A stretch of 51,201 nt of DNA from Candidatus Woesearchaeota archaeon (lineage in GTDB: Archaea > Nanobdellota > Nanobdellia > Woesearchaeales > GW2011-AR9): positions 1-51,201 of the forward strand of contig JAGVYE010000046.1 in NCBI GenBank assembly GCA_018303445.1. Reading direction: 5' to 3'. Shown here in pieces: positions 19,368-46,020 of the stretch. The notes under the pieces are model-generated. The model did not search any database, had not been told where the DNA came from, and saw only the letters and a program-made list of their open reading frames with translations. How positions within the stretch are numbered: position 1 is the first letter of the stretch; each line of letters begins with the position of its first letter. The translations under genes were made by a program, and so were the position numbers.

Positions 19368-20501
19368 ATGGTTGGTTTGGATCGAAAAGATTGTGCTATC
19401 CTTGGTATTCTCCAGAAGAACTGTCGGGCAACGCTCTCAGACATAGGACAAGCTGTTGACCTTTCACCCGATTCTGTCCGAAGAAGAATCGATAAGATGG
19501 TGGAAAACAAGATCTTTCATCCTAAAGTTCAAATGCGCCCACCCCATTTTGGGTATCCTAATGTCATAGAAGTCAAAATTAAGTTAAAAGACCATTCCAA
19601 TGAGAAGTATGATCAGTTTATAGCCTATTTACAGGATCATAGCAGAATTGTAGAAATCTTTAAGGTAAGCGGTCCTTGGGATCTTTCCATTGTGGTTATT
19701 TCCAAAGATGCTGCAGATTTACGCAGCATTTCTGACGAAGTCAAAGGACGATTTGGCGGTATCATTTCAGAATGGATTGAATCGATGACGTTAGATTCTT
19801 ACAAGTTTGAATTGTATGATATGATGAAACTTATGGAAGAAGAAAGTGCTGGCCCAGAAGTCGTAATTATTGATTACAAATTAGGGAATGTAACTTCCGT
19901 ATTAAATGCGTTAAAGGTGTTAGGAGTAAAAGCTGAAATTACCAATGATGTAATGAAGATTCGAAAGGCAAAAAAGATTATTCTTCCTGGAGTGGGAGCC
20001 TTTGCAGAAGGAATGAAGAATCTGAAAGAGGTAGGATTAATTAAGGTCTTATATGAGGAAGTCCTGGTTAAGAAAAAGCCGTTTTTAGGAATTTGTTTGG
20101 GAATGCAAATTATTTGCACCAAAGGATATGAAGGAGGAGAGTTTAAAGGATTAGGATGGATCGATGCGGAAGTGGTTCGTTTTGAAGGAGAAAATTTACG
20201 TATTCCTCATATTGGTTGGAATGACGTGAAATGTAACTTAGCCTGCCCTATTCTTTCAAATGGAAAAGATGTTCAAACATTTTATTTTGTACATAGTTAC
20301 TTTGTAAAACCAAAAGACTCATCAATCATTGTTGGAAGCTGTGATTATGGAATCCCTTTTGCGGCTGTAATTCAAAAAGAAAATATCTTTGCCACGCAAT
20401 TTCATCCAGAAAAAAGTCAGCATGAAGGTTTAGAAATTTTACGAAAATTTGCGACTTTAGAAAATGTTAAAGAAACGCCTGATACCGTGCTTGTTTCTTA
20501 A
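19368..20501 (+). CDS. fusion protein: full-length Lrp/AsnC regulator (HTH + RAM domain) plus HisH-type class-I glutamine amidotransferase
   Basis: Residues 1-150: LDRKDCAILGILQKNCRATLSDIGQAVDLSPDSVRRRIDKM (AsnC HTH) plus a RAM-like beta-alpha-beta-beta-alpha-beta segment. Residues ~164-377: VVIIDYKLGN, ILPGVGAF, GICLGMQ (Cys nucleophile), HSYF and QFHPEKS (His/Glu). Confidence 0.8.
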   Translation: MVGLDRKDCAILGILQKNCRATLSDIGQAVDLSPDSVRRRIDKMVENKIFHPKVQMRPPHFGYPNVIEVKIKLKDHSNEKYDQFIAYLQDHSRIVEIFKVSGPWDLSIVVISKDAADLRSISDEVKGRFGGIISEWIESMTLDSYKFELYDMMKLMEEESAGPEVVIIDYKLGNVTSVLNALKVLGVKAEITNDVMKIRKAKKIILPGVGAFAEGMKNLKEVGLIKVLYEEVLVKKKPFLGICLGMQIICTKGYEGGEFKGLGWIDAEVVRFEGENLRIPHIGWNDVKCNLACPILSNGKDVQTFYFVHSYFVKPKDSSIIVGSCDYGIPFAAVIQKENIFATQFHPEKSQHEGLEILRKFATLENVKETPDTVLVS

Positions 20502-21321
20502 AAACGGGCACCTTGTACGAAGTGAACGGTTTGAGTTCCACCAGTTATTGGGTGATCCAATTCATCAGGTAGATCGCATTAATGCCTGGTCTGCAGATGA
20601 GTTAATTTACGTAGATATTAGCAATGAGGAATATTATGATTTGAGGAGAGATGATATGCGGGTAAAAAGAATGGACGACATTTATGATATTATCGCTCAT
20701 GTTAGCAAAACTTGCTTTATCCCTTTAACATTCGGTGGAAATATTAGAACTATTGAAGATGTCAGAAAACGATTAAAATGTGGCGCAGATAAAGTGATTA
20801 TTGATACCAGAGCGCATGAACGACCAGAGTTTATTACCGAAGCAGCGGAGCGTTTTGGCAGTCAATGCATTGTTATGGGGATAGACGTTAAGAAAGAACA
20901 AGATGGAGCATACCAAGTGTATAGCCATCATGGAAAAACGGCAACAGGAAAGAACCCTGTTGACTGGGCTAGGGAAGTAGAAAAGTTAGGAGCGGGAGAG
21001 ATTTTTTTAAATTCCATTGATCGCGATGGCGCCCAAGAAGGATATGACATCACATTAATTAAAATGGTTGCAGCAGCGGTCAAAATTCCTTTGATTGCCT
21101 GTGGAGGAGCCGGAACATTTGAAGACCTGGTTGAATGTGTGAAAGAAGGAGGTGCAGATGCTGTTGCGGCAGGAAACATCTTCAATTACACTGAAAATGC
21201 CGTATTACGAGCAAAAAAAACGTTAATCCAACATGGAGTGGAGATGCGACCTATTGTACGACCTCCTACATTATTCAAAAGCCAAGATCATATCCTGGAA
21301 GGATATATTAAAAATATTTAG
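20464..21321 (+). CDS. HisF-like cyclase subunit (WbuZ-type, glycan acetamidino formation)
   Basis: MLKKRLIPCLFLKNGHLVRS, then TFGGNIRT, GADKVII and ACGGAGTFEDL, the (beta/alpha)8 HisF pattern. Lies between a HisH-like gene and an N-acetyl sugar amidotransferase. Confidence 0.85.
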   Translation: MLKKRLIPCLFLKNGHLVRSERFEFHQLLGDPIHQVDRINAWSADELIYVDISNEEYYDLRRDDMRVKRMDDIYDIIAHVSKTCFIPLTFGGNIRTIEDVRKRLKCGADKVIIDTRAHERPEFITEAAERFGSQCIVMGIDVKKEQDGAYQVYSHHGKTATGKNPVDWAREVEKLGAGEIFLNSIDRDGAQEGYDITLIKMVAAAVKIPLIACGGAGTFEDLVECVKEGGADAVAAGNIFNYTENAVLRAKKTLIQHGVEMRPIVRPPTLFKSQDHILEGYIKNI

Positions 21322-21333
21322 AAGGTGATAACT

Positions 21334-22641
21334 ATGGAGATAGCAAGACCAGCAAAAATGCGGTATTGTACAAAATGCGTCTATCCAAAATCTTCCGCTG
21401 TTCCTTTAGCGTTTGATGAAAAAGGAGTGTGTAGCGGATGTAGAGTCCATGATCAGAAAATACATATCGATTGGAAAAAAATGGAAGAGAAACTTAAAAA
21501 ATTAGTCGAACCGTACCGCTCAAAAGGAAATAAGTATGACTGTATTGTTCCGGTAAGCGGGGGAAAAGATAGTTACTTCCAGACATGGTATGTTACCAAT
21601 GTCTTAAAGATGAAACCATTGTTAGTTACTTATCAAGGAAATGATTATTATGATGTTGGTTTAAAGAATTTACATAATATGAGAAATGTGTTTAATGCCG
21701 ATCATTTCATTATGGGGCCCAGTGTTGACATTCTCAAGAAACTTCATAAAAAGTGTTTTAAGATGATGGGGGACATGAGCTGGCACAATCATTGCGGTAT
21801 TTTTTCTTTTCCCGTGCAAGCTGCGGTAAAATTCAAAGTTCCACTAATTATTTGGGGCGAACACGGATACACTGATATTGGCGGCATGTATAATATGAAT
21901 GACTTAGTGGAGATGACCAAGAAATATCGAACGGAACATGCCTGCCGCGGCTTTGATTGGTATGACATGATTGATGAAGAGATCGGAATTACCGAGAAAG
22001 ATTTGTTGTGTCATAAATATCCGACTGATGAAGAATTAGAAGAAAATGATATTCGGGGAATTTATATGGGATTTTACGTGTTCTGGGATGCAAACGCCCA
22101 TTTCAAAAGGATGACGGAAGAGTTAGGTTTTCTTCCAGCAGAATTTCCTTTCGAAAGAACCTACCGCCGCTTCTCAGCTCTTGATGACATGCACGAAGCA
22201 GGTATTCATGATTACATGAAATTCATCAAATTTGGTTATGGAAGAGGTTCTGATCATCCTTGTAAGGATATCCGTTTAGGGTATATGACCAGAGAAGAGG
22301 GAATTGCCAATATAAAAAAGTATGATGCAGTGAAGCCCATGCAGGATTTGAACCGCTGGTTAAAATATGTTGAAATGACGGAAGAAGAGTTTGATAGAAC
22401 TGCCGATACATTTAGAGATCCATCTGTTTGGTGGATCCAGGATGGTGAATGGTGGAAAGACAATATTTGGGGAGAACCTTCAAGCTACGGAAAGGTTTGG
22501 CTAACTGAAGAGCTACAGAAGAAGTATTATTGGAATGATACAAAAAAAGGCATAAGTAGAGGTCCGCTCCTGATCACACAAGGAAGGCAGGACATTAAAA
22601 AGAGCAGTGAAGAAAAATTATCTACTGTTCCACAGAATTAG
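21334..22641 (+). CDS. N-acetyl sugar amidotransferase (WbuX/PseA-like, PP-loop ATP pyrophosphatase)
   Basis: N-terminal zinc ribbon CTKCVYP...GVCSGC followed by the PP-loop VPVSGGKDS. AAGGTGA lies upstream of ATG 21334. Confidence 0.85.
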   Translation: MEIARPAKMRYCTKCVYPKSSAVPLAFDEKGVCSGCRVHDQKIHIDWKKMEEKLKKLVEPYRSKGNKYDCIVPVSGGKDSYFQTWYVTNVLKMKPLLVTYQGNDYYDVGLKNLHNMRNVFNADHFIMGPSVDILKKLHKKCFKMMGDMSWHNHCGIFSFPVQAAVKFKVPLIIWGEHGYTDIGGMYNMNDLVEMTKKYRTEHACRGFDWYDMIDEEIGITEKDLLCHKYPTDEELEENDIRGIYMGFYVFWDANAHFKRMTEELGFLPAEFPFERTYRRFSALDDMHEAGIHDYMKFIKFGYGRGSDHPCKDIRLGYMTREEGIANIKKYDAVKPMQDLNRWLKYVEMTEEEFDRTADTFRDPSVWWIQDGEWWKDNIWGEPSSYGKVWLTEELQKKYYWNDTKKGISRGPLLITQGRQDIKKSSEEKLSTVPQN

Positions 22642-24026: not shown

Positions 24027-25599
24027 TCCTACTGTAGGAGATATACAGAGAAACAAGAATAAAATAATTGAGAATCTGAACAGAGCAAGAAAAGAAAACG
24101 TTTCTCTGGTAATATTTCCTGAATTAGTAGTTACCGGTTACCCTCCAAAAGACCTGTTACTAAAGAAATCTTTTGTAAAAGCCAATAAAGAAGCTGTGAA
24201 AGAAATAGCGAGAATGACAACTGGAACTGCTGCCATTGTCGGCTTTGTTGACGAAAATAAAGGTGTATTGCACAATGCAGCTGCCGTGTTAGAAAATGAA
24301 GAGCTTAAAGGAGTTTATCACAAAAAACACCTTCCTAACTATGATGTTTTCGATGAGAAGCGATACTTTGCACCAGGTTCAACATCAGGTTCATTTTTCG
24401 TAGCTGGAAAGAAAGTCGGGATTACCATTTGTGAAGACATTTGGGTAGAGAATAATCCCCTTCCTGGGCTAAAAAAAGAAGGAGTCGAACTTACCATTAA
24501 CATTTCTGGATCTCCTTTTCATGCCGGAAAGAGAATGCTGCGGGAAGAACTCATTAAGAAAAGAGCATTGGAGAATAATCTGCCTATGATTTACCTTAAC
24601 ATCATTGGCGGGCAGGATGATCTGATTTTTGATGGCAGAAGCTATGTTTTTAGCAAAAAAGGGGAAATACTCGCACGGGCAAAGAGTTTCGAAGAAGATT
24701 TTTTAATCATCTCTGACTTTGAAAATATAGCACGAATTGAGAGAGAACAAGAAGTGATTGAAGAAATTTACCAAGCTATTATTTTAGGAATTCGAGATTA
24801 CGTTTTTAAAAATGGATTTAAGAAAGTAATTCTCGGTTTGAGTGGAGGCATCGATTCCGCTGTTACAGCGACTTTAGCAGTACATGCCTTAGGAGCCGAT
24901 AAAGTAGAAGGCATTACTATGCCCAGTGAATTCTCCTCTTCCGGAAGTGTTGATGATTCCGTTCAATTAGCAAAGAACTTAGGAATAAAATGTGAAACCG
25001 TTGCCATCAAAGAAATTTACCAAAGTTATCTTAAAGGATTGCATCAGCAATTTAATGGAACTTTCTTTAACGTAGCAGAGGAAAATGTACAAGCGAGAAT
25101 TAGAGGGAATCTGTTAATGGCGGTTTCAAATAAATTTGGACATTTAGTTTTAACAACAGGAAATAAATCTGAGCTGTCAGTTGGTTATGCAACGTTATAT
25201 GGAGATATGTCTGGGGGATTGGCCGTTATTTCGGACATATTTAAAGTAAAAGTATATGAACTTGCTAATTTTATAAATGAGCGGGAGGAGAAGGAAGTTA
25301 TTCCCAAAGAAATTATTGACAAAGAACCTTCGGCAGAGCTACGAGATAATCAGAAAGATAGCGATTCACTGCCACCTTATCCCGTTCTCGATCCTATTCT
25401 TCAGGCCTATGTTGAAGAAGATAAAAGTAAAGAGGAAATTATCGCTTTAGGTTTTAACGCTGAGACAGTTGCAAAAGTGATTAAGCTTGTCGATAGAAGT
25501 GAGTATAAACGAAATCAAGCGGCTCTGGGAATAAGAGTAACACCGCGAGCTTTCGGATCGGGAAGAAGAATTCCGATAACAAATGGATGGAGGGAATGA
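24001..25599 (+). CDS. nadE: glutamine-dependent NAD+ synthetase (CN-hydrolase + NAD synthetase domains)
   Basis: CN-hydrolase triad context: FPELVVTGY, HKKHLPNYDVFDE and ITICEDIW. PP-loop LGLSGGIDSAV. C-terminal PSAELR...QKDSDSLPPY. The start overlaps the dehydrogenase stop by 26 nt. Confidence 0.88.
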   Translation: MKIALAQINPTVGDIQRNKNKIIENLNRARKENVSLVIFPELVVTGYPPKDLLLKKSFVKANKEAVKEIARMTTGTAAIVGFVDENKGVLHNAAAVLENEELKGVYHKKHLPNYDVFDEKRYFAPGSTSGSFFVAGKKVGITICEDIWVENNPLPGLKKEGVELTINISGSPFHAGKRMLREELIKKRALENNLPMIYLNIIGGQDDLIFDGRSYVFSKKGEILARAKSFEEDFLIISDFENIARIEREQEVIEEIYQAIILGIRDYVFKNGFKKVILGLSGGIDSAVTATLAVHALGADKVEGITMPSEFSSSGSVDDSVQLAKNLGIKCETVAIKEIYQSYLKGLHQQFNGTFFNVAEENVQARIRGNLLMAVSNKFGHLVLTTGNKSELSVGYATLYGDMSGGLAVISDIFKVKVYELANFINEREEKEVIPKEIIDKEPSAELRDNQKDSDSLPPYPVLDPILQAYVEEDKSKEEIIALGFNAETVAKVIKLVDRSEYKRNQAALGIRVTPRAFGSGRRIPITNGWRE

Positions 25600-25600
25600 A

Positions 25601-26581
25601 ATGACGCAAACGACACCAACATTAGAAGTTTTGACGGAGTTATTGATGGGAGAAGCTTCTTTTTTTCCAGATACAAGAGCTCCGAAGGTTTTCTTTGATA
25701 GAGAGAATTCCCAACAAAAAGGGGGAGTAATGATTACTCCGCTTTATTATCCGAGTCGAAAAATTCCCGTATCTTTTCTAGACGGAAAGACAGGAAAAAT
25801 AAGAAGAAAATTTAGAAGAGACCACATTTCCGCGCTCTTATTAGAAAAAGAAGGGGAAAATTCACCTAAAAGAAATGTTATCGCTCTTCATCAACACGCA
25901 CTTAATTTTGAAATTGGAAAAAGTGAACCAGCAGGTTTGAAAGGGGATCCTGAGCAAGCGTATGGGTTTGAATTAGCGCAGAGAGGATACCGTGTTCTTT
26001 GTTTTGATTTTCCTCCTTTCGAGGAAAGAATACTTGATTTTCCTGGTGAACCTTTTTTAAAACAAGAGCTTTCTTTGGAGGGTGTTGAACTCATGGGAAA
26101 ATACATGTGTGACACGATGAGAGCCGTGGATGTGCTTTTATCACTTAATCCAAATCCCGTTAATCCAGAAGTAGGATTAATCGGTCATTCTCTCGGCGGC
26201 ATGGTTGCGGTCTATACACAAGCCTGTGATCCCAGAATTACAGCAGCGGTGGCTAATTGTGGAGTTTCAACATACGATAGCATTACAGATACAGGACAGA
26301 CCCATAACTGGGCGTATCCCATTCATGGAATGAGACCCAGATTTGGAGAATGGCATGAAGTATTTGCTTTCTTACAAGGAAGACCTTTACTTATTTCTGC
26401 TTCTTTTGAAGATGATCTTTTCCCTATCGAGGGGGTAGTCGACTTTGTTCGTTTTGCAAAAAAGTTTGAAGGAGCTTCTCATCTGAAATTTAAAGAGTGG
26501 AGAGGTGGTCATTCGTTTTCCAAGGAAGCGAGAGAATTTGCGTATGGTTTTCTCGACCGCCACTTAGAAAGAGGAAAATGA
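25601..26581 (+). CDS. alpha/beta-fold hydrolase (dienelactone hydrolase/esterase-like)
   Basis: Nucleophile elbow GHSLGG and C-terminal GGHSF. GGAGGG lies upstream of ATG 25601, directly after the nadE stop. Confidence 0.62.
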   Translation: MTQTTPTLEVLTELLMGEASFFPDTRAPKVFFDRENSQQKGGVMITPLYYPSRKIPVSFLDGKTGKIRRKFRRDHISALLLEKEGENSPKRNVIALHQHALNFEIGKSEPAGLKGDPEQAYGFELAQRGYRVLCFDFPPFEERILDFPGEPFLKQELSLEGVELMGKYMCDTMRAVDVLLSLNPNPVNPEVGLIGHSLGGMVAVYTQACDPRITAAVANCGVSTYDSITDTGQTHNWAYPIHGMRPRFGEWHEVFAFLQGRPLLISASFEDDLFPIEGVVDFVRFAKKFEGASHLKFKEWRGGHSFSKEAREFAYGFLDRHLERGK

Positions 26582-28425
26582 AAACAATTTTGCTTATCGG
26601 AGGGAGTAGTTTTATCGGATTGCAGTGTCTACCTTATTTTTCTAAACAATATAATTGTTACGCCACATATTATAAAAACAAGATCGAAGTTAATGATAGT
26701 AAAATTTTACAACTAGACCTGCACGATAAAGAAAAGACAGAGAAATTAATTTTCTCCGTAAAACCAGATGTGATTATTCTTTGCTCCGCTATTTCAACAT
26801 TAGTTGAAGAGAAAGAATTTGAAAAAGAAATCGAAGAGATTAATATTAACGCGGTGAAGAATGTGTCAGAAGCGTCTAAAGTCATTGCAGCAAAACTTAT
26901 TTTAATTTCCACTGACTGCGTCTTTTCGGGAGAAAACGGACCTTACAAAGAAAGTGATGTAGTTTCACCAAAACAATTGTATGGAGTAACAAAAAAAGAA
27001 GCCGAGAAGATAGTGCGGGAACTTTCAGATTATGCAATTATAAGGACATCTTTAGTTTATGGCTGGCCTCAGCAATTTCAGCATGACAATTTCGTTACGA
27101 ACCTTATTAAAAAAATTCGGAAAAGGGAAGAATTTTCGGCTCACCTTGATATGTATCGCACGCCAACGTATGTTAGTGATATAAGCAAAGCGATAAGCAA
27201 TATTATCAAAAACCATTTAAAAGGAACGTTTCATGCCGCTGCTCCTGAATTCGTAAACATGTTTGATTTCGGTTTAAAAGTTTGTGAAGTGTTTAACCTT
27301 TCGAAAGACCAACTGAAGGCTAGTTTCGCTCCTGAAGAGTATCGGCAAAGACCAAAAAGGGCAGGGTTGTACTGTAAAAAATCAGAGGAACAATTAAACA
27401 TAAAATTTAAAACTATTGAAGAGGGACTGCAAGAAATGAAAAACACAACACCGCCACAGTATAATATTATTTATCCTCAGCAAAAACAAACAGTGTTAGT
27501 AACAGGTGGAGCAGGATTTATTGGCAGTCACCTCGTCGAAGCTCTGGTGAAAAAACGATTTAAAGTTAAAGTTCTCGACTCTTTAGTTAAAGGAAAGATT
27601 CAAAGTATTAAGTATTTAATAGACCAAGGAGAAGTTCAGTTTATTGAAGGAGATATTCGCAATAAAGATGCCGTAGATGAAGCGATGAAAGAAGCATCAT
27701 TTGTATTTCACACGGCAGGAATTCATATTGACAAGAGTGTTAAATCACCAGACGACTGCATAGCTAATAATATTCAAGGCTCTTACAATGTGTTCAAATC
27801 AGCATTGGATCATAAAGTCCAGCGCGTGATTTTTTCTTCTTCTTCGAGTGTCTATGGGGATCCAAAAAAACTACCAATGGTGGAAGATGACCCTTTGCTT
27901 CCTGCAGAACCGTATGGTGCATCAAAACTATTTTGTGAGCATCTTCTTCAGCACTTGGCAAAAAAAGGACTAAAATACAACACCTTGCGCTATTTTAACG
28001 TGTATGGCGAACGTCAGGCTGCCCACGCTTATTATACAACTGTTGTCATTCATTTCATTAAAAGAATCATCAGTAATGAACCACCTACAATTGACGGAAA
28101 AGGCGACCAATCTATGGATTTTACTCATGTTTCAGATGTGGTGCAAGCAAATATTTTAGCCATGGAATCAAAAACAGAAAATGAAGCTTTTAATGTAGGA
28201 ACAGGCGTAAGCACATCAGTAAAAAAACTAACAGAAATTATCATTAAAGCATTAGAGAGAGACTTACAACCAATTTTCCGTGAACGAGACGTGTTCGTCA
28301 CAAAAAGGCAAGCTGATACACGAAAAGCAGAAAGTCTCTTGGGATTTAAGACTTCAGTAAAAGTAGAGGATGGAATTACTCAAATAGCTCACGAGATTGC
28401 TCATCACCCAGAAAGATATTATTAA
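26578..28425 (+). CDS. double-SDR fusion: RmlD-like sugar reductase domain plus GalE/WbpP-like NAD-dependent epimerase/dehydratase domain
   Basis: Domain 1: ILLIGGSSFIG, STDCVFSG and YGVTKKEAE (YxxxK). Domain 2, from about nt 27484: VLVTGGAGFIGSHLVEAL and YGASKLFCE. ATGA overlap with the upstream gene. Confidence 0.8.
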   Translation: MKTILLIGGSSFIGLQCLPYFSKQYNCYATYYKNKIEVNDSKILQLDLHDKEKTEKLIFSVKPDVIILCSAISTLVEEKEFEKEIEEININAVKNVSEASKVIAAKLILISTDCVFSGENGPYKESDVVSPKQLYGVTKKEAEKIVRELSDYAIIRTSLVYGWPQQFQHDNFVTNLIKKIRKREEFSAHLDMYRTPTYVSDISKAISNIIKNHLKGTFHAAAPEFVNMFDFGLKVCEVFNLSKDQLKASFAPEEYRQRPKRAGLYCKKSEEQLNIKFKTIEEGLQEMKNTTPPQYNIIYPQQKQTVLVTGGAGFIGSHLVEALVKKRFKVKVLDSLVKGKIQSIKYLIDQGEVQFIEGDIRNKDAVDEAMKEASFVFHTAGIHIDKSVKSPDDCIANNIQGSYNVFKSALDHKVQRVIFSSSSSVYGDPKKLPMVEDDPLLPAEPYGASKLFCEHLLQHLAKKGLKYNTLRYFNVYGERQAAHAYYTTVVIHFIKRIISNEPPTIDGKGDQSMDFTHVSDVVQANILAMESKTENEAFNVGTGVSTSVKKLTEIIIKALERDLQPIFRERDVFVTKRQADTRKAESLLGFKTSVKVEDGITQIAHEIAHHPERYY

Positions 28426-28542
28426 AAATAAAAATCCCAGCCACTGCAAAGGATGGTATTTTTAATTAATAATACTTTACAAATTCCAAAAAAAAGACAA
28501 AAAAGAAACCAAGCCACTATAAGCAGAGGGGTATCATAACGA

Positions 28543-31500
28543 ATGAAAATTCGAACAGATTTCCTTTTATTAGCAAAACCAACAATCGAAGAAGAGGAAC
28601 GAAAAGCAGTAGACGAAGTTCTATGCTCTGGATGGTTAACAACCGGGCCTAAAGTTAAAGAATTTGAAGAGAAAATGCAGCAATACCTTCAATGTGAAAA
28701 AGCAATAGCTTTAACCTCATGCACAGGGGGGTTGCATATTGCTTTGGCAGCAGTAGGAGTAAGTCCTGGCGATGAGGTGATCGTTCCTGTGTATACTTTT
28801 GTCGCTTGCGCTCATGTAGTAGAATGGCTCGGTGCAAAGCCTGTTTTTGTTGACGTAGATAAAGATACTTTTAACATTGACCATTCAAAAATTGAAGAAG
28901 CAATTACGTCGAAAACAAAAGCGATTATGCCCGTGCACTTTGCCGGTCATGCCTGTAATATGGATAAAATCTTGGAGATAGCAAAAAAACATCATCTTTT
29001 TGTCGTAGAAGATGCCGCCCATGCCATCGGAACAGAATATCGCGGAAAGAAAATAGGAACGCATGGTGATGCGACTGTGTTCAGTTTTTATGCTACCAAA
29101 ACCATGACTACAGCAGAAGGGGGGATGATCACAACTAATAACAAAGTACTAGGTGAGAAATTAAAACGATTTTCTTATTTCGGTGTTGACAAAGATGCTT
29201 ATGGAAGATATTCTGACAGAGGCACATGGTATTACGAAGTTATTGAAAAAGGATTTAAATATAACATGGACAACATCCACGGTGCTTTAGGTGTTGAGCA
29301 ATTAAAAAAAGTAGAAGGGTTTATTGCTAGAAGAAGAATCCTCGCAGCTTTGTATAATGCCCTTCTGCGAGACGTTCCAGGCATCGTCACCCCAGTAGAA
29401 AAAGAATACACGAAACATTCTTATCATCTTTATCCGATACTTTTAGACGTTGACAATGTTAAAATAACACGTGCTGATTTTATTGAAAAATTACGTGAGT
29501 ATAAAATTGGTTCCAGTGTCCATTTCATCCCTCTTCATTTGCATCCTTATTACCAAAAAAAATATGATTATAAACAAGGAAATTTCCCCATAGCTGAGTA
29601 TATTTATGATCACGAAGTGTCCCTTCCTCTTTTTCCTTCAATGACGGCAGAAGACGTCAAGTATGTAGTCGACGCGATAAAAGAAATCATCGAAAAAGCT
29701 GGGAACGTACAAGAAAAAAAAGAACGGAGTGATTCTAATAGGCTAAAGAAGAAGGTTATTACGATTGGAAACAAAACGATAGGCGGAGACAACCCTTGCT
29801 TTACAATAGCTGAGATAGGTATTAATTTTAATGGCTCTCTAGAAAAAGCGATGACCCTTATTGATTCAGCAGTGGAAGCAGGCTGCGATGCGGTAAAGTT
29901 TCAAGCATTCACTGCCAAAAATTTATACTCAAAAACAGCAGGCAACTTAGATTGGGAAGATAAAAAAAATAAGTATTCTTACTCGATCTATGATAATGTA
30001 AAGCAATTTGAACTGCCAAAAGAGTGGGTGCCTTTACTGAAGCAATATTGTGAGAAAAATGGCATTATTTTCTTTTCCAGTATTTGCGATGAAGAACAAG
30101 CTGATTATTATGACACATTAGGAGTTCCTTTATTTAAAACGACAAGTTATGCCATTACTCATCTGCCACTTATGGAGCATATCGCAAAGAAAAGAAAACC
30201 ATTAATCATTTCAACTGGAGGGGCCACTCTTGAAGAAATTAGGGAAGCGTATGAAACCGCTAGAAAATATAATGACAAAATAATTATTCTTCATTGTATG
30301 ATTAAGTACCCTGCTCCACTATCAGAAATAAACATGAACGTCCTAGAAACATTGCAGAATGAATTTCCCGAGGCAGTTATTGGGTATTCAGACCACTCAG
30401 CTGAACCTGCTGATGCTCCAATCGCAGCTATCTATAAAAAAGCAAAAGTGATTGAAAAGCACATTACTCTTGATAAAAAAATGCCGGGACCTGACCATTT
30501 TTTTGCTTTGGAACCAGAGGAATTAAAACAGATGGTAAGAACGATAAAAGAAACCGAAAAAAAAATAGCACAAGCAGAAAAGATAGATATAAATCCCTTA
30601 ATCTTAGGAAATTCAGAAAAAATAATTAACTCGAGTGAGAAATATCTGCGAGAATTCGCCTATCAGACCATTATTACTTCCGGCTCCATAAAAGAAGGAG
30701 AAACAATTTCTGTAAATAATGTAAAAGTTTTACGTCCCGGAAAGCTTAAAAAAGGTCTTCCCCCGAAAGATTACCCTTCTTTAACAAACGGTTCTTTCAT
30801 GGCCAAACATTCTTTTCCTGAAGGAGAAATTATATTATGGGGAGACGTCGAAAAAACAAGAAAAAATGGAGCTGAAGCTATAAAAAATCTTTTAGAAAAA
30901 AATAGAGAAAAAAACAATAGCTTAAATGAGGAAAAAAAAACGTATATTATAGCTGAAATTGCTTCGGCTCATTGCGGTGATATTCACAGGTTAAAGACTA
31001 TCATTAAAAAGAGCGCTGAAACTGGAGTTAATGCGATAAAATTTCAAGTATTTAATGTAGATTACTTTGTTTCAAAATTTCATCCAAATTATGAGAACAA
31101 CAAAAAGAACCAATTTAGTATTGAACAATGGACAGAAATCTTTGAATTTAGCCAACAGTTTAATATTGATCTCTGGGCTGACGTTTTTGACGAAGAAAGT
31201 GCTAATTTAGCTGATAAATACGTTTGTGGATTTAAATTACATTCTACCGATATTACAAACAATTTCATGATTGAACACATCGCCAAAAAAGGAAAGCCAA
31301 TCATCTTAGCAACAGGCGGAGCATCGCTGGAGGAATTAAAAAAAGCTGTACAAAAAATAGAAGACCTGGGAAACAACCAGATTATCTTAACGCAGGGATT
31401 TCAAGCATATCCTACAGATATTAGTAAAGTTAATTTAAAAAGAATTGAAATTCTTAAAAAAGAATTTCCACAATGCATCTTGGGATATCATGACCATACT

Positions 31501-32679
31501 GACGCTGAATCAGTGATGAAAATTATTCTCCCCGTCGCATCCGTAGCGTATGGAGCGAAAGTTATTGAAAAGCATATTACTGATGATCGCTCTTTAAAAG
31601 GTTTTGATTACGAGTCTGCATTGAATCCAGACGAATTAAAAGAGCTTGTAAAGGCTATTCGCGCTTTTGAAAGTAGCGTTGGAAAAGAAGGATTTGAACT
31701 ATCTTTAGATGAACTACAATATCGCGATTACACGAAAAGATACATTGTTGCAAAATGCCCTCTTAACAAAGGCAACATCATTCAACAAGAAAATCTAGCG
31801 TTTAAGCGTTCTACCAAAGGGATTACTCCAAATCAGTACCAAAAAATTGTTGGATTGAAAACTATACGGGACCTAAAAGAAGACGAAAGTATTACACCCC
31901 TTGATGTTAAAAACAAAGTTGTTATTACCTTGGCTGTCCGTCTCAAATCAAAAAGGCTGCCTAAAAAAGCAATATTAGACATTGAAGGTCAGACCGCTAT
32001 CGAGCACCAGATTGATCGCTTAAAACGGTGTAAGGAAGGGGAAGTTATTCTTTGTACTTCAACCCTAGAAGAAGACGAGCAACTCATTGGAATTGCTCAA
32101 AAGAAAGGAATTAAGTATTTCGCGGGTGATCCTGACGATGTAATGGATCGTTTTGTGCAATGTGCTGAACGAGAAGAGGCAAACATAGTAGTAAGAACAA
32201 CAGGCGATTGTCCTTTGATTGATCCCGAAATTGTAGATAAATTGATTATTCATCACCTTAAGACTGGGGCTGATTACACAGGGATTGAGGATGTACCTAT
32301 CGGATTTGAAGCAGAAGTGATAAACGTAGCAACTTTAAAAGAAGCGAAAGGAAGAGTAAAAGATCCAAAAGATACAGAATTCATGACTTGGTTTATTAAA
32401 GATCCTTTCCATTTTAAAGTCGAAATTTTGCCCATTGACGAAGCAATAAAATGTAATTATCGTATGACTTTAGACACACCCCAGGATTTACAGGCGATTA
32501 GGGAAGTGTTTAAAGCACTGTACCCCAAAAAACGAGATTTTACAATAGGGGATATAGTCGATTTCTTAAACGAGCATCCTGAAGTTGTTAGTATTAATAT
32601 GGACTATCAGCAGATTAAAAGACCACCCAAGCTGGCTGAGATGAGAGAACATAAAACTGTATTTGAAGAAGCAAAATAA
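28543..32679 (+). CDS. four-domain fusion: DegT/PseC-type aminotransferase + NeuB-type nonulosonate synthase + second NeuB-type synthase + SpsF/PseF-type cytidylyltransferase
   Basis: aa 1-386: SFYATKTMTTAEGG (PLP Lys). aa 404-770: NPCFTIAEIGINFNGS, IGYSDHS, IEKHITLDK and a SAF domain. aa 798-1122: YIIAEIASAHCGD, LGYHDHT, IEKHITDD and a SAF domain. aa 1125-1378: ITLAVRLKSKRLPKKA and TGDCPLIDP. One uninterrupted 1378-codon ORF. Confidence 0.85.
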   Translation: MKIRTDFLLLAKPTIEEEERKAVDEVLCSGWLTTGPKVKEFEEKMQQYLQCEKAIALTSCTGGLHIALAAVGVSPGDEVIVPVYTFVACAHVVEWLGAKPVFVDVDKDTFNIDHSKIEEAITSKTKAIMPVHFAGHACNMDKILEIAKKHHLFVVEDAAHAIGTEYRGKKIGTHGDATVFSFYATKTMTTAEGGMITTNNKVLGEKLKRFSYFGVDKDAYGRYSDRGTWYYEVIEKGFKYNMDNIHGALGVEQLKKVEGFIARRRILAALYNALLRDVPGIVTPVEKEYTKHSYHLYPILLDVDNVKITRADFIEKLREYKIGSSVHFIPLHLHPYYQKKYDYKQGNFPIAEYIYDHEVSLPLFPSMTAEDVKYVVDAIKEIIEKAGNVQEKKERSDSNRLKKKVITIGNKTIGGDNPCFTIAEIGINFNGSLEKAMTLIDSAVEAGCDAVKFQAFTAKNLYSKTAGNLDWEDKKNKYSYSIYDNVKQFELPKEWVPLLKQYCEKNGIIFFSSICDEEQADYYDTLGVPLFKTTSYAITHLPLMEHIAKKRKPLIISTGGATLEEIREAYETARKYNDKIIILHCMIKYPAPLSEINMNVLETLQNEFPEAVIGYSDHSAEPADAPIAAIYKKAKVIEKHITLDKKMPGPDHFFALEPEELKQMVRTIKETEKKIAQAEKIDINPLILGNSEKIINSSEKYLREFAYQTIITSGSIKEGETISVNNVKVLRPGKLKKGLPPKDYPSLTNGSFMAKHSFPEGEIILWGDVEKTRKNGAEAIKNLLEKNREKNNSLNEEKKTYIIAEIASAHCGDIHRLKTIIKKSAETGVNAIKFQVFNVDYFVSKFHPNYENNKKNQFSIEQWTEIFEFSQQFNIDLWADVFDEESANLADKYVCGFKLHSTDITNNFMIEHIAKKGKPIILATGGASLEELKKAVQKIEDLGNNQIILTQGFQAYPTDISKVNLKRIEILKKEFPQCILGYHDHTDAESVMKIILPVASVAYGAKVIEKHITDDRSLKGFDYESALNPDELKELVKAIRAFESSVGKEGFELSLDELQYRDYTKRYIVAKCPLNKGNIIQQENLAFKRSTKGITPNQYQKIVGLKTIRDLKEDESITPLDVKNKVVITLAVRLKSKRLPKKAILDIEGQTAIEHQIDRLKRCKEGEVILCTSTLEEDEQLIGIAQKKGIKYFAGDPDDVMDRFVQCAEREEANIVVRTTGDCPLIDPEIVDKLIIHHLKTGADYTGIEDVPIGFEAEVINVATLKEAKGRVKDPKDTEFMTWFIKDPFHFKVEILPIDEAIKCNYRMTLDTPQDLQAIREVFKALYPKKRDFTIGDIVDFLNEHPEVVSINMDYQQIKRPPKLAEMREHKTVFEEAK

Positions 32680-32700
32680 AATATAAATCCTAATGACTAC

Positions 32701-33156
32701 ATGGAAACAAAAAATATAGAAAATATTGAAAAATATATGGAAATCCTCTGGAATCATGACGTAAAAAATCGGCAAATTAATTTTCTAAGAGATAGTCCTC
32801 AGCGTCAGATTTTTGAAGAAAGGATAAGGAAAGAATTTCAAGATCAACCACAGGGATTTTTTTTAGTTTATGAAAATAAGAAAGTGATAGGCTCTCTTAT
32901 TCTAAAAATCTCGTTTAACCCTTATCGTCAGCAGAAATATGGGGATGTTCGAGCCATCTTTTTAGAATCACAATGCCGCGGCAAAGGATACGGAACAAAA
33001 TTATTAGACTTTGCGGATGAATTTTTTAAGAAGAACGGCTGTGCTTATGCCTTTGCTGGTATTGCTACTCATAATTCTGCTTCAAATGCTTTATTTGCTA
33101 AAAGTAATTATGTTCATACCAGAACAATTTTAGAAAAAAATTATGATGAAACATGA
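32701..33156 (+). CDS. GNAT-family N-acetyltransferase (PseH/SpsD-like position)
   Basis: AIFLESQCRGKGYGTKLLDFA (acetyl-CoA binding R/Q-x-x-G-x-G/A). 151 aa. Confidence 0.75.
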   Translation: METKNIENIEKYMEILWNHDVKNRQINFLRDSPQRQIFEERIRKEFQDQPQGFFLVYENKKVIGSLILKISFNPYRQQKYGDVRAIFLESQCRGKGYGTKLLDFADEFFKKNGCAYAFAGIATHNSASNALFAKSNYVHTRTILEKNYDET

Positions 33157-34205
33157 CTTTTCTCATTGGCATTCGCACCGACGGGAGTACAAGTTATGGT
33201 TTAGGACATATTAGTAGTTGCCTAGCTCTGTGTGAGTTTCTGAAAGATTATCCTGATTTGAAAGTATTATTTATTATGAAGAACTGGAGAGAGGGTGTTA
33301 ATAAAGTAAAATCTGAAAGTTATGACGTTATAACTATCGACCCCAAACTTTCAGAAGAAAAAGTAGCCGAAGAAACAACTAAAATTCTTTGTGAACAAAA
33401 AGCGCATCTTTTACTCACAGACCTTCTCGAAATAAGTTATGATTTCTCACCATCACTGAAAAGTAATGGGATCAAAACAATAAGTATTGATATTTTGGGA
33501 AACATTAATTTAAAAAGTGATATTATTATTAATAGAACGATAGTCAATTTACGATGTCATAAGTATAACAAAAATCAGGGAACTATTTTTTTTGTAGGGC
33601 CAGAATATGTTATTCTACGAAAGCAATTCCTTAATTTCAGGGAGAGAGAAATTCAAAAAAAAGTAAAGAATGTTTTAGTGTGTATGGGGGGAGGAGATGA
33701 ATTTAACATTACAACGAGAGTAATAAAGATTCTGCAAAATATAAAGCATATAAAAGTAGTTGCGGTCATAGGAGCAGCATTTAGAGGAGAAGATGAATTG
33801 CGAAAAACAATGGAAAGAAATATCAAACAATTTGTCTTGCGACGTAACGTAAAAAACATGGCTAAGTTACTGCATGATTGTGACGTTGCTGTTAGTGCTG
33901 GCGGCTCGATGCTGTACGAACTTGCTGCCACAGGAACTCCAGCTTTAATAATCCCCATGAATGAACATCAAATTGAGAATGCTCGTGAATTTGTGGAACG
34001 TAAAAGTGTCATATGTACAGAAATCCATAGTAAAGTAGGTAATAAGCAAATTGAAATTAATTTAGATAGGCTTTTTAAAGATTATCTTCTACGACAGGAA
34101 ATGAGCAAAAAAGGGCCTCAAATCACAGATGGAAGGGGAGGAGAACGGGTGGCAAAGATTATCTACGAACATTTAAACGGAAAAAGAATAAATTTAGAAA
34201 AATAA
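33153..34205 (+). CDS. PseG/SpsG-like UDP-sugar hydrolase (GT28-C-like fold)
   Basis: LIGIRTDGSTSYGLGHISSCLAL matches the PseG N-terminal R-x-D-G-x-x-x-x-G-x-GH signature. C-terminal AGGSMLYELAATGTPALIIP. ATGA overlap with the upstream gene. Confidence 0.75.
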   Translation: MTFLIGIRTDGSTSYGLGHISSCLALCEFLKDYPDLKVLFIMKNWREGVNKVKSESYDVITIDPKLSEEKVAEETTKILCEQKAHLLLTDLLEISYDFSPSLKSNGIKTISIDILGNINLKSDIIINRTIVNLRCHKYNKNQGTIFFVGPEYVILRKQFLNFREREIQKKVKNVLVCMGGGDEFNITTRVIKILQNIKHIKVVAVIGAAFRGEDELRKTMERNIKQFVLRRNVKNMAKLLHDCDVAVSAGGSMLYELAATGTPALIIPMNEHQIENAREFVERKSVICTEIHSKVGNKQIEINLDRLFKDYLLRQEMSKKGPQITDGRGGERVAKIIYEHLNGKRINLEK

Positions 34206-34214
34206 TTGTTAAAA

Positions 34215-35786
34215 ATGTCACTTATGAATATTATTGATGAACTTAATCCGGGATGGAACACAAAGAAGATTGATGGTGCAAGCATCCAAGATTCATTAAA
34301 AATAGAAAGTATAGAACTGTGGTGGTTTTATCAGAGATTTTTAGTAAGGTACGTCCTTCCGAGTTATCTTAAACAAAAAAATGGAAATTTGAGTGAAAAT
34401 CTAAGTCAAGGAAAAGAATGGTTTTATTCTATTTTTTTTAGATTCATGAATTACAGAAACCGTAAATTTTTGAAATATAATGAATCTATAAAAAGAAAAA
34501 TTTCAAAGCAAAATTCTCCTACAGGAAATATCGAAAGAGAGAAAGCCCTCTTTCTAACGTATACAAATCACCTCACGGAAAAAGGGGAAATATACAGAAT
34601 TGAAAAAATAGTACAAAAAATATCCCAAGAAGGGATTTTAAAGCCATTGGTGATTTTTGCTGACCCCCTTTCTGGAATATCATACTTTAAAATCAGGAAG
34701 CAAAATCATACCATTTACGCGTTTATAAGTGAAGAGGTTAAAAAAAAAGCGGAAGAGGCTTCTCAGGATCTTGTTAAAAAATGGAAGTCGTTCAACAAAA
34801 AATGGTTATTTGGAAATCAATGGGAAGAAGTTAAATGGCCATTAGAATTATTTTTTTCACGAGAGTTTATATGCCATACAGCTTTGTATTATTTTGCATT
34901 TAAAAATCTTTTACAACAACAGAAAGTTAAAGCTGTTGTTATTACCGCGAGTAATGGATTATACGAACGATGCTGTATGGCGGCTGCTTTTAAATTAGAA
35001 ATCCCCGTTATTAATATACAGCATGGTGAAGGATTAGGTTGTGTTAACCCGGGGTTATTGCCAGGAGTGACTTTTGCCGTGTTTGGAGACGCTTACAAAG
35101 AAAGACTCACTTCTTGGGTGAAAGAAAAAGACATTGCCATTACTGGACCTCTTACTTTTGACCAAATATGTGATTATAAAAAAAAATCAACGATGAGAAA
35201 AAGCGGAAAGATTACTTTGATTACGGGCCCTTTCGTTGATAATAACCTTCTTCCTTCAGAAGTTTATTTTGAATACATTAATAAGATTTTGCAGGCTACT
35301 TCACCATTTTATAAAGAGATTATTATAAAATTGCATCCCCGTGAAAGAATGAGAGAAGAATACCAGAAAGTTATAGAAAAGAATAATTTTAAGAATGTAA
35401 TGATTGAGGAGAGGAAAGACGTTAATGTATTATATCAATTATTAAGTTCGAGCGACTTAGTAATCAATTTCGATTCAACAGTTGCCTTGGAAGCAATGAT
35501 CTTAGGAAAGCCCATTCTTACGATTAATTTTCAGTTAAATCTCGTGCCTAATTACCAAGAATCACCTTTTATTGGTGGGTTAATCGTAACGATGAACGAT
35601 AACCTCAAAGAAGCTGTAAAAGAAGCAATGGATCAAAAATGGGAAGCTAAACGTGAACAAATTGTTCAGAAGTTTTGCTTTAAGACTGATGGGAAAGCAG
35701 CAGAAAGAATGGTTGAGTTAATTTACGAGAAAGCAGGTATGGATCATAAGACCCCCGTAAGAGAAACTCTTAAAAAATCATTCTGA
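34215..35786 (+). CDS. putative GT-B-fold surface-carbohydrate transferase (Glyphos_transf/Capsule_synth-like); candidate nonulosonate transferase
   Basis: C-terminal half ITLITGPF..., IIKLHPRE and LLSSSDLVINFDSTVALEAMILGKPILTI resembles the nucleotide-sugar-binding half of CDP-glycerol/capsule-type transferases. Weak, by-eye only. Alternative TTG start at 34206. Confidence 0.45.
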   Translation: MSLMNIIDELNPGWNTKKIDGASIQDSLKIESIELWWFYQRFLVRYVLPSYLKQKNGNLSENLSQGKEWFYSIFFRFMNYRNRKFLKYNESIKRKISKQNSPTGNIEREKALFLTYTNHLTEKGEIYRIEKIVQKISQEGILKPLVIFADPLSGISYFKIRKQNHTIYAFISEEVKKKAEEASQDLVKKWKSFNKKWLFGNQWEEVKWPLELFFSREFICHTALYYFAFKNLLQQQKVKAVVITASNGLYERCCMAAAFKLEIPVINIQHGEGLGCVNPGLLPGVTFAVFGDAYKERLTSWVKEKDIAITGPLTFDQICDYKKKSTMRKSGKITLITGPFVDNNLLPSEVYFEYINKILQATSPFYKEIIIKLHPRERMREEYQKVIEKNNFKNVMIEERKDVNVLYQLLSSSDLVINFDSTVALEAMILGKPILTINFQLNLVPNYQESPFIGGLIVTMNDNLKEAVKEAMDQKWEAKREQIVQKFCFKTDGKAAERMVELIYEKAGMDHKTPVRETLKKSF

Positions 35787-43622: not shown

Positions 43623-44132
43623 TTAGCGGACATCACACACTTTCGCCGCTATTTTCTTTGAAAGATACAATATCGAGATAAAAAGAGCAAAAACGGCAAT
43701 AACTCCTAATTCCAAGCCTTTAAAAGGTAATATTGCTAAAAAACTTCCTACCCCTAACACACTGAGCAAACCGATGGCACAGGAAGGGCACGCCGGCGCG
43801 ATAACCCCTGCTAAGATACTTAAAGAGCTCATTCCCACCTTTGCCGTTGCCTGCCTTTTTACCAGAAAAATCGTCATTGATAAAACAATACCCGCAAGAA
43901 GAGACATCAACACCAGTAAAAGCAAAGAAATTATGTTTATGGAACTTAACGTCCCTCGTACTAAAGATAAAGTCAATAAAAATGAAAACGAAGAAGAAAA
44001 AATTATTCTATAATTATTAATGAGGGCATTAAACAATATCAGAAAGGTGGCAAAGCCTAAAGTTGCCATTATATACGCCGGAGAGATATATACCTCTTTT
44101 AGCGCGTCCCGAAGCTGTCGAAATGAATCCAT
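43623..44132 (-). CDS. polytopic membrane protein with intramembrane CPSC motif (candidate redox partner of the adjacent DsbA-like protein)
   Basis: 4-5 TM helices. GVIAPACPSCAIGLLSVLG lies inside a hydrophobic segment. Immediately downstream of the DsbA-like gene on the same strand. Confidence 0.5.
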   Translation of the reverse strand: MDSFRQLRDALKEVYISPAYIMATLGFATFLILFNALINNYRIIFSSSFSFLLTLSLVRGTLSSINIISLLLLVLMSLLAGIVLSMTIFLVKRQATAKVGMSSLSILAGVIAPACPSCAIGLLSVLGVGSFLAILPFKGLELGVIAVFALFISILYLSKKIAAKVCDVR

Positions 44133-44165
44133 TTATGAAGTAAAAAGAAGTAAAAATAAAAAGCT

Positions 44166-46008: not shown

Positions 46009-46020
46009 TGCCTTTCCCTC

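Follow-up and report, generated by a model that had tools for sequence, protein, structure and literature searches.

Two NeuB-type synthase units of different subfamilies in one predicted four-module nonulosonate protein from a Woesearchaeota-like archaeon

Nonulosonic acids (sialic, pseudaminic and legionaminic acids) decorate microbial surfaces, and to our knowledge all characterised pathways to them use one NeuB-family synthase per sugar. An open reading frame (ORF) on a contig of a Candidatus Woesearchaeota archaeon (JAGVYE010000046.1; its 51,201 nt, analysed throughout, are called the window below) turns an automatic annotation, “N-acetylneuraminate synthase family protein”, into a concrete question: why are there two synthases in one pathway? 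The ORF (28543-32679, forward strand) encodes 1378 aa from an ATG start with no in-frame stops, and two NeuB-type synthase units stand in it between an aminotransferase and a cytidylyltransferase. The component families are ordinary, and the protein is already public under its automatic annotation. Our comparisons make it probable that this is a genuine multi-enzyme fusion of a Woesearchaeota-like groundwater organism, in which four sps/Pse-like operon genes have been joined and in which both NeuB units are likely to be active and non-redundant.

Pfam places DegT_DnrJ_EryC1, then NeuB and SAF twice, then CTP_transf_3 along the ORF, and NCBIfam agrees. In hidden Markov models (HMMs) built for this analysis the NeuB units match at aa 398-772 and 786-1125 and the transferase at aa 1126-1358; exact nucleotide coordinates are given in Table 1. 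The same HMMs, run over the whole window, found no further NeuB and no further strong transferase. An initial annotation made from the sequence alone had proposed these four modules in this order in one unbroken frame, and the ORF listing, Pfam and the HMMs bear it out; its boundaries for the two synthases and the transferase lie within a few codons of ours, and all the motifs that it had quoted are in the translation (SFYATK...AEGG, AEIGINFNG and AEIASAHCG, SDHS and HDHT, EKH twice, GPDHFFAL and GFDYESAL). A GAGGGG-like ribosome-binding site lies about 12 nt 5′ of the ATG, and an AT-rich spacer of 117 nt precedes the ORF.

Table 1. Modules, linkers and key residues of the 1378-aa protein, followed by neighbouring features of the window (GATase, glutamine amidotransferase; HTH, helix-turn-helix; PLP, pyridoxal phosphate; SDR, short-chain dehydrogenase/reductase; UDP, uridine diphosphate).
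Feature	Position (nt)	Strand	Basis
PseC/SpsC-like PLP aminotransferase module, aa 11-385	28573..29697	+	Pfam DegT, TIGR03588, identity to relatives
Linker 1, AGNVQEKKERSDSNRLKKK	29698..29754	+	Module map, comparison with relatives
NeuB-1, SpsE-type: TIM barrel aa 405-674, linker helix and SAF aa 675-769	29755..30849	+	1VLI match, residue map
Linker 2, between the NeuB units	30850..30933	+	Poorly conserved, length varies in relatives; predicted local distance difference test (pLDDT) <50 in both models
NeuB-2, GxQ-type NeuB and SAF, aa 798-1122	30934..31908	+	PDB matches, residue map
SpsF-type CTP_transf_3 cytidylyltransferase, aa 1123-1378	31909..32676	+	Pfam, 6OEW, invariant columns
NeuB-1 key residues: E424, K452, K532, H618, E638, H640, D651, R731			
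NeuB-2 key residues: E805, K833, K898, G952/Q954, H983 (replaces Ser213), H985, E1009, H1011, D1022, R1089			
AglB/STT3 oligosaccharyltransferase	14254..17076	+	PF02516 E 1.2e-39
Acetamidino-type amidotransferase set: AsnC-HTH fused to HisH-like GATase, HisF-like cyclase, WbuX	19368..22641	+	
Fused SDR pair: RmlD-like and GalE/LegB-like 4,6-dehydratase-type	26497..28425	+	Pfam, NCBIfam
GNAT N-acetyltransferase (PseH/SpsD role)	32701..33156	+	Pfam; directly downstream in relatives too
PseG/SpsG-like UDP-sugar hydrolase	33153..34205	+	TIGR03590, 174.3 bits vs cut-off 153.55
Surface-carbohydrate biosynthesis protein, candidate nonulosonate transferase	34206..35786	+	TIGR04396 and BFO_1060 matches below cut-offs

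The fusion is genuinely encoded. Its sequence was found in 19 public runs (groundwater and soil metagenomes), and Logan contigs from four independent runs (different samples and studies) reproduce 28300-32800 with 0 mismatches and 0 gaps, one contig spanning the region in each of three runs (X1-X3) and two overlapping contigs covering it in the other (X4). An identical 1378-aa protein (P0387) is recorded on 6 contigs across NCBI, JGI, Logan and ENA. The fusion is also present on an ENA scaffold from a separate assembly (L029), whose sole difference over 10.1 kb is one 9-nt in-frame deletion (ATGTAAAAG, window 30727-30735, flanked by GTAAA repeats) in the first SAF domain; in this ANAN16 assembly, from the same population, the deletion removes three residues and changes a valine to isoleucine, three residues ahead of the essential SAF arginine of NeuB-1 (R731). 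All of this evidence consists of assembled contigs from runs and of separate assemblies. An open frame across the junctions had been set beforehand as a test, and the contigs of the four runs and the ENA, NCBI and JGI assemblies all keep the same frame.

Linker 1 is where a fault would most simply undo the fusion. It contains an A8 homopolymer (29714-29721), and a single missing A would bring a TAA into frame shortly afterwards (a few codons), where the aminotransferase would stop; all assemblies agree on A8. The start methionine of the NeuB-1 homologues in relatives is AAG (Lys) here, so that NeuB-1 has no start codon of its own in this ORF. An artefact or pseudogene, through assembly collapse, chimerism or a frameshifted read-through joining separate genes, might be suspected from the homopolymer, from the presence of three gene fusions in a single cluster (AsnC-HisH, SDR-SDR and the 1378-aa ORF) and from coverage by contigs rather than reads. 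We consider it very improbable, and already disfavoured: the common frame of the four run assemblies and the independent ENA, NCBI and JGI assemblies, on which assembly artefact was rejected, is joined by the missing start codon, by the recurrence of the NeuB-NeuB-transferase part at 63-69% identity in about 10 other proteins from different samples, and by conservation acting on all modules.

Where did such a protein come from? The homologue search returned eight proteins of 951-964 aa, 64-69% identical to the query over 71% of its length, which have the NeuB-NeuB-transferase order and no aminotransferase; in total about 10 related proteins of ~960 aa exist, and the closest relatives are annotated as metagenome-assembled genomes of Candidatus Woesearchaeota (DPANN). 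The initial annotation had proposed a search for the same architecture in other genomes: the tandem does occur elsewhere, in these ~960-aa relatives, but the added aminotransferase is specific to this population. At five related loci (L001-L005) the SDRs and the aminotransferase are separate genes (except that the SDRs are fused in L005), followed by the ~960-aa gene, the GNAT gene and the PseG-like gene; the operon of the relatives runs dehydrogenase, NadE-like, SDR, SDR, aminotransferase, NeuB-NeuB-transferase, GNAT, PseG-like, phosphodiesterase, glycosyltransferase family 4 (GT4). The aminotransferase module is 68-76% identical to these separate aminotransferases (379-383 aa), which stop exactly at the start of linker 1 and lack the linker itself. 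At L027, NeuB-1 (370 aa) and NeuB-2-transferase (584 aa) are separate genes with a 4-nt overlap. Each unit is also found without the other: L009/L010 join a NeuB-1-type unit (68% identical) to a GNAT, and L026 and L028 have the NeuB-2-transferase protein with no NeuB-1 in view. Still another arrangement, at L008 (854-3550), is an 898-aa protein in which GxQ NeuB and transferase (50% identical to those of the window) follow a ~320-aa N-terminal region that had no Pfam or NCBIfam match. The Saccharibacteria/Patescibacteria matches of the genome scan (L016, L023) are separate genes.

By these comparisons the 1378-aa ORF arose by fusion of adjacent genes and not by internal duplication, since its two synthase units come from two subfamilies, are adjacent but separate in L027, and are each found without the other. 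The fused, separate and alternative states across loci imply that the modules have been shuffled as independent units, and the window is the most fused state among the loci seen. In L026 a gene of the DHDPS/NanA family (pyruvate aldolases; 368-1279) lies directly 5′ of the NeuB-2-transferase gene, at the position of NeuB-1, perhaps as a non-orthologous substitute for that synthase. In L005, genes for a 5-formyl-tetrahydrofolate cyclo-ligase and a methylene-tetrahydrofolate dehydrogenase/cyclohydrolase (10853-13292) are inserted after the NeuB-NeuB-transferase gene, which hints at an N-formyl nonulosonate in that lineage.

The subfamilies of the two NeuB units differ. Pfam finds two stretches of NeuB (E 5.6e-133 for the protein as a whole) and two of SAF; in both units a barrel above the gathering score is followed by SAF, the architecture of the NeuB family (PF03102 and SAF). 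Both units also match SpsE, NeuB and PseI structures in the PDB. The units share 31% identity with each other. NeuB-1 matches Bacillus subtilis SpsE (1VLI) at E 1.9e-96 and is ~44% identical to an SpsE-like representative (P0250), and NeuB-2 is about equally far from SpsE and from Campylobacter jejuni PseI (E ~1e-38 and ~1e-36). The closest relatives of NeuB-2 form a clade that we call the GxQ type, from Gly182 and Gln184 (numbering of Neisseria meningitidis NeuB) where canonical enzymes have Cys182 and Asn, Ser, Ala or Ile at 184; in the clade, position 213 is variable (M/H/A/Q/S/L) with no conserved Ser213, Ser, Ala or Gly stands at 154, and Asp at 134. NeuB-2 shares 57-68% identity with NeuB-transferase proteins and 45-49% with stand-alone homologues that have G182/Q184, and many members of the clade are fused to an SpsF-type transferase in proteins of ~575-600 aa. 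A profile of the clade found no closer structure in the PDB than PseI, SpsE and Leptospira NeuB (~250 bits each, all Cys182/Ser213). We take NeuB-1 and NeuB-2, on these sequence relationships, as anciently separated paralogues of different subfamilies. The initial annotation had described them as old, diverged copies of a duplicated domain; old and diverged they are at 31% identity, but duplication does not fit two subfamilies that are separate adjacent genes in L027. A recent tandem duplication was rejected on the same grounds and because each unit has closer relatives elsewhere.

Residues of both units were mapped onto N. meningitidis NeuB in 9 tandem proteins, with residue roles from earlier work (PMC11339185, PMC8208679). 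Glu25, Lys53, Gln55, Lys129, Ser132, Tyr186, His215, Glu234, His236, Asp247 and the SAF arginine Arg314 are kept in both units of all 9, and Asp214 is kept in both units except for an Asn in NeuB-2 of one protein (P0004). The residues characteristic of the family (His215/His236, Glu25/Glu234, Lys53/Lys129, Asp247 and Arg314) are thus present in each unit. The initial annotation had seen that both metal-binding histidine contexts are retained in both synthases, and had named loss of essential residues in both as the outcome that would overturn it; on alignment to N. meningitidis NeuB the metal ligands, Glu25 and Glu234, both lysines and the SAF arginine are found in both units. Deviations from the N. 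meningitidis enzyme are His30Phe, Glu134Ala (Ser or Gly in two relatives) and Asn184Ile in NeuB-1, and Asn29Ala, Glu134Asp, Ser154Ala, Cys182Gly, Asn184Gln, Ser213His and Phe288Tyr in NeuB-2. Of the set formed by the third catalytic glutamate, Glu134, and the PEP-phosphate serines 132, 154 and 213, NeuB-1 has Ala134 with the serines kept, and NeuB-2 has Asp134, Ala154 and His213.

The substitutions at 134 and 213 are no proof of inactivity, because they also occur in stand-alone SpsE-like proteins (134; Ala or Ser is common there) and across the GxQ clade (213). Asp134 is reported to be common or typical in archaeal and eukaryotic synthases (PMC8208679). Inactivity of NeuB-1 through Glu134Ala was not supported, given the stand-alone proteins; neither was inactivity of NeuB-2 through loss of Ser154 and Ser213, a clade-wide trait that leaves the other catalytic residues in place. 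In the wider GxQ clade, E25, H215, H236, D247 and R314 show little or no variation. The two lysines are less constant: 13 of 85 stand-alone members have Gln in place of K53, and K129 has given way to another residue in 2 of 34 long members and in 8 of the 85. Gly182/Gln184 may represent a compensating mode of phosphate binding in the GxQ type. Conservation is equal over the two barrels: mean pairwise identity is 0.759 for NeuB-1 and 0.763 for NeuB-2 (0.41 for linker 2), with 48% and 47% invariant columns, respectively. The evidence leans towards both units being under selection as enzymes, and we predict both to be catalytic.

For the terminal modules, the assignments differ in depth. The N-terminal module belongs by its Pfam match (aa 14-379, E 3.6e-134, 448 bits) to the DegT family; its putative PLP lysine, K186 in SFYATK (nt 29098-29100), is invariant against the aminotransferases of related loci. 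The PseC model (TIGR03588) gives the module 405.8 bits, just under the equivalog cut-off of 423.5, and the LegC model 264.9 (cut-off 420). The C-terminal module matches CTP_transf_3 (aa 1132-1268, E 5.5e-18, 66 bits vs a gathering score of 22.6) and the structure 6OEW (E 6e-22 across 229 residues). It has the features of an SpsF-type transferase, namely the CTP_transf_3 domain, an N-terminal R/K-rich nucleotide loop and a TGD..P..DP motif: in RLKSKRLPKKA the residues R, L, K, S, R, L, P, K and A, and in TGDCPLIDP the residues T, G, D, P, D and P, are invariant in 9 proteins. NCBIfam gave no PseF or NeuA equivalog match for it. The domain also weakly matches the “spiro-SPASM” family (TIGR04321).

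How unusual is the tandem, and does its pairing of synthases recur elsewhere? Fusions around NeuB are common in metagenomes, and NeuB-NeuB is rare. Searching the NeuB-NeuB segment against 1.84 billion cluster representatives gave one 50%-identity cluster matching both units (P0009); a further match, P0148, is a truncated member whose cluster also holds a full 964-aa protein. Ten representatives longer than ~620 aa or with large extra domains were checked, and all were NeuB with another partner (radical SAM/SPASM, formyltransferase, glycosyltransferase family 2 (GT2), NeuC-type epimerase, GNAT, transferase with GT2, transferase with PseG), with no tandem among them. The claim in the initial annotation that no NeuB-NeuB tandem has been described agrees with the literature searched, in which we found no tandem or fused NeuB and no DPANN nonulosonates.

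As separate genes, the two kinds of synthase keep company widely. A GxQ-NeuB-transferase profile matched at least 589 metagenomic stretches that encode a relative. We fetched 80 loci, in 26 of which the GxQ gene is flanked by 4 kb or more on each side, and in 23 of these (~88%) a canonical NeuB (Cys/Ser182, Ser213) lies 0.7-7 kb away, in 19 cases on the same strand. The pairing was seen again at L030 and L032, which were reached by another route. Pfam on 95 ORFs of eight paired loci found 17 NeuB proteins for 10 CTP_transf_3 proteins; SDRs, DegT aminotransferases and UDP-sugar dehydrogenases were also among them. The canonical partners are of several kinds (SpsE-like, PseI-like and others at ≤35% identity). 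The combination, usually with a single transferase, has the appearance of a “two NeuB, one transferase” module that is widespread and uncharacterised (L033-L112, L030 and L032), and the roles of the two synthases are likely to be non-redundant because a canonical NeuB accompanies the GxQ NeuB in 23 of 26 loci and NeuB proteins outnumber transferases 17 to 10. The gene between the two NeuBs is often radical SAM/SPASM or PseG-like; for example, in three marine loci a radical SAM/SPASM gene lies between the canonical NeuB and the GxQ NeuB-transferase (L054:8626-9987, L069:3460-4857 and L038:5211-6605). A NeuB-radical SAM-SPASM fusion also exists (P0344). These arrangements and the spiro-SPASM match of the transferase domain suggest that NeuB/SpsF-type enzymes are connected with radical SAM chemistry.

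We infer the chemical steps, the product and the division of labour from the gene content, on the precedent of the B. subtilis SpsM/C/D/G/E/F route to cytidine monophosphate (CMP)-legionaminic acid (PMC7439481) and of the pseudaminic acid pathway. The fused SDR pair would yield a UDP-4-keto-6-deoxy-N-acetylhexosamine, whose C4 the PseC-like module would transaminate with PLP on Lys186; the downstream GNAT would acetylate the new amine, and the PseG-like hydrolase would remove UDP to leave a free 2,4-diacetamido-2,4,6-trideoxyhexose. Condensation with phosphoenolpyruvate (PEP) by a NeuB unit would give a 5,7-diacylamido-3,5,7,9-tetradeoxy-nonulosonate of the pseudaminic (Pse) or legionaminic (Leg) type, which the C-terminal SpsF-type module would convert to the CMP-sugar. 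WbuX, HisH and HisF may turn an acetamido into an acetamidino group, and the finished sugar would enter a surface glycan or an AglB-dependent N-glycan. By analogy with known pathways, a CMP-activated Pse/Leg-type nonulosonate destined for such a glycan is the probable product.

Several observations weigh against this account. Neither NeuB unit alone reaches an equivalog cut-off: NeuB_NnaB (TIGR03569) gives 300.5 bits for NeuB-1 and 242.1 for NeuB-2 (cut-off 399.65), and PseI (TIGR03586) gives 235.2 and 198.0 (cut-off 340.25); the whole ORF passes both cut-offs because the scores of the two units add up. Likewise, the PseC score falling just below its cut-off leaves a PseC-specific assignment not secured. 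By the residue map, Ala replaces the catalytic Glu134 and Phe replaces His30 in NeuB-1, and the Ser154Ala and Ser213His changes of NeuB-2 fall at predicted PEP-phosphate contacts. A Gly/Phe position distinguishes Pse from Leg specificity (PMC7371886); NeuB-1 has Tyr there, like SpsE, and NeuB-2 has Thr, and since the dehydratase is in addition not of the PseB/SpsM type, a Pse product is not separable from Leg. One transferase serves two synthases, which is at least as compatible with cooperation between them as with two parallel products. Finally, integrity is judged at the contig level, and translation as a single chain is assumed.

NeuB is known as a domain-swapped homodimer in which SAF caps the barrel of the partner and supplies the essential Arg314 (PMC11339185, PMC8208679). 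The SpsE-type and GxQ-type units could, on this model, be obligate partners, a covalent hetero-dimer forming one two-site synthase hard-wired by the fusion, with pairing within one chain or between two and with sites that may differ or be asymmetric. The established swap and arginine, the arginine kept in both SAF domains, the single transferase per two NeuBs and the classic signs of interacting subunits (co-occurrence in 23 of 26 loci, the 4-nt overlap in L027, fusion in about 10 proteins) would all suit such a dimer, yet we judge it unlikely. Each type also occurs with no partner in view (L009/L010, L026, L028, L050, L061, L100), and the heterogeneity of the canonical partners is odd for a specific interface; one gene often intervenes, the two genes are sometimes on opposite strands, and the inter-unit linker of P0008 is only a few residues. 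AlphaFold2 gave a predicted template modelling score (pTM) of 0.43 for a 993-aa run; in a 718-aa run both NeuB units had a mean pLDDT of 91.4, but pTM was 0.59 and the units showed no confident mutual packing. Foldseek aligned the NeuB-1 model to the SpsE chain with a template modelling (TM) score of 0.88, and to the N. meningitidis and C. jejuni chains with TM 0.70 at a root-mean-square deviation of 26 Å (single chains).

A distinctly unlikely alternative is that one unit (NeuB-2 with its altered pocket, or NeuB-1 without Glu134) is a binding, scaffold, regulatory or other-chemistry module. It would account for S154A, S213H, C182G and N184Q in NeuB-2, with position 213 variable clade-wide, and for E134A and H30F in NeuB-1; the aldolase at the NeuB-1 position in L026 hints that NeuB-1 is the backbone-forming enzyme and that NeuB-2 does something else, and among the PDB matches there is no solved or characterised GxQ protein. 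Conservation argues the other way. The metal ligands, Glu25/Glu234, Lys53/Lys129, Asp247 and the SAF arginine stand in both units of all 9 tandem proteins, purifying selection is equal on both barrels, and the near-invariance of E25, H215, H236, D247 and R314 across the GxQ clade would be unexpected in a non-catalytic module (K53 and K129 vary). The residues found at position 134 are common in other synthases, as described above, and Gly182/Gln184 perhaps compensates in phosphate binding. A fusion of synthase and transferase also puts successive steps together, an argument for NeuB-2 feeding the transferase. We continue to favour two active, non-redundant synthases. The wider proposal that canonical and GxQ NeuBs are obligate partners throughout a widespread two-NeuB, one-transferase nonulosonate route, as a hetero-oligomer or with GxQ catalysing a distinct step, is one that we hold as tentative; were it true, the Woesearchaeota tandem would be a Rosetta-stone fusion that reveals the partnership.

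Comparison with known systems places most modules and isolates what is new. The B. subtilis sps pathway (PMC7439481) likewise uses a DegT aminotransferase, a GNAT, a PseG-like hydrolase, an SpsE-type NeuB and an SpsF-type cytidylyltransferase on UDP-linked precursors, and SpsE is the closest match of NeuB-1. The window holds equivalents of SpsC, D, G, E and F, and an extra GxQ NeuB; by NCBIfam its cluster has no SpsM/CapD-type dehydratase, and the GalE/LegB-like and RmlD-like fusion stands in its place. The sps enzymes, in contrast, are separate proteins with one NeuB and a CapD/PseB-type SpsM, and they serve the spore crust, whereas the host here is an archaeon with AglB nearby. With the PseB/C/H/G/I/F pathway of Helicobacter and Campylobacter (C. 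jejuni PseI, 8H2C) the cluster shares an aminotransferase best matched as PseC, a hydrolase above the PseG cut-off, a GNAT at the PseH position and a NeuB-2 as close to C. jejuni PseI as to SpsE; it differs in the PseC and PseI scores below cut-off and in having two synthases rather than one, and NCBIfam found no PseB-type dehydratase and no PseF equivalog in the window. N. meningitidis NeuB (1XUZ) has the TIM barrel, SAF domain and family residues of both units here, but is a homodimer acting on N-acetylmannosamine, whereas the window has two different units per chain, with E134A in NeuB-1 and S154A/S213H/C182G/N184Q in NeuB-2.

NeuB-2 and the transferase of the ORF belong with the uncharacterised NeuB-CTP_transf_3 proteins of ~575-600 aa that are widespread in metagenomes: they share the GxQ signature and are 57-68% identical to Woesearchaeota members (P0121-P0125) and 31-46% identical to distant, mostly marine or soil, members. 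Those proteins lack the SpsE-type NeuB and the aminotransferase, and their canonical NeuB is a separate nearby gene. Fusions known in this chemistry, namely Leptospira NeuB-phosphatase (PMC3438082), the mammalian GNE epimerase/kinase and a Vibrio SpsF-like transferase-aldo-keto reductase (PMC7371886), set a precedent for the merging of pathway neighbours into a single chain but include none with two NeuB units and none with four modules. The legionaminic acid N-glycan pathway of Halorubrum sp. PV6 (PMC6137143) is a precedent for an archaeal nonulosonate tied to protein N-glycosylation, but it uses separate LegB/C/H/G(NeuC-type)/I/F proteins, a NeuA-type transferase and a single synthase. New are the covalent NeuB-NeuB arrangement, confined to one lineage, its aminotransferase extension, and a GxQ NeuB that would work alongside a canonical one; none of the three is described in the literature searched. 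The ORF would be a natural single-chain assembly line and a compact candidate for the enzymatic production of CMP-activated rare sugars; the fusion links two NeuB subfamilies functionally, and the surface glycobiology of DPANN archaea, which is little known, gains a predicted nonulosonate pathway.

The surrounding genes form a glycan island. AglB/STT3, RadB/Rad51-like protein and CofD are archaeal markers in the window, and the presence of AglB/STT3 marks the region as an archaeal protein-glycosylation island; scans of the whole window for tRNA and Rfam matches gave none. From left to right the island holds AglB, GT2/GT4, AsnC-HisH, HisF, WbuX, a UDP-sugar dehydrogenase, a NadE-like protein, an alpha/beta hydrolase, the SDR pair and the 1378-aa ORF, then the GNAT, the PseG-type hydrolase, the surface-carbohydrate transferase candidate (which also has weak polysialyltransferase and capsule-synthesis Pfam matches) and a phosphodiesterase-family protein. 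WbuX scores 334 bits against the TIGR03573 cut-off of 203. The SDR pair is separate genes in L001, L002 and L027; its listed GTG start overlaps the preceding gene, and the real start is probably the methionine at aa 28 (615 aa, as called in L029).

A few minor features of the neighbourhood deserve mention. The third gene fusion of the cluster (19368-20501) joins an AsnC-type HTH/ligand-binding regulator to the HisH-like glutamine amidotransferase, which are separate adjacent genes in L028. At 22665-25599 the UDP-sugar dehydrogenase is followed by a glutamine-dependent NAD-synthase homologue (CN_hydrolase and NAD_synthase), a pair conserved in all related loci; the homologue may amidate a uronic acid rather than make NAD. 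Two type I phosphodiesterase/nucleotide pyrophosphatase genes (PF01663) lie at 35880-37304 and 40861-42258; genes of this family occur directly 3′ of the PseG-like gene in the window and also in L001, L002 and L026. A copper/heavy-metal block on the reverse strand (43623-50736) adjoins the island; it encodes a P-type ATPase carrying a heavy-metal-associated (HMA) domain, a DsbA-like thioredoxin and a DsbD-like membrane protein that has both HMA and cupredoxin domains.

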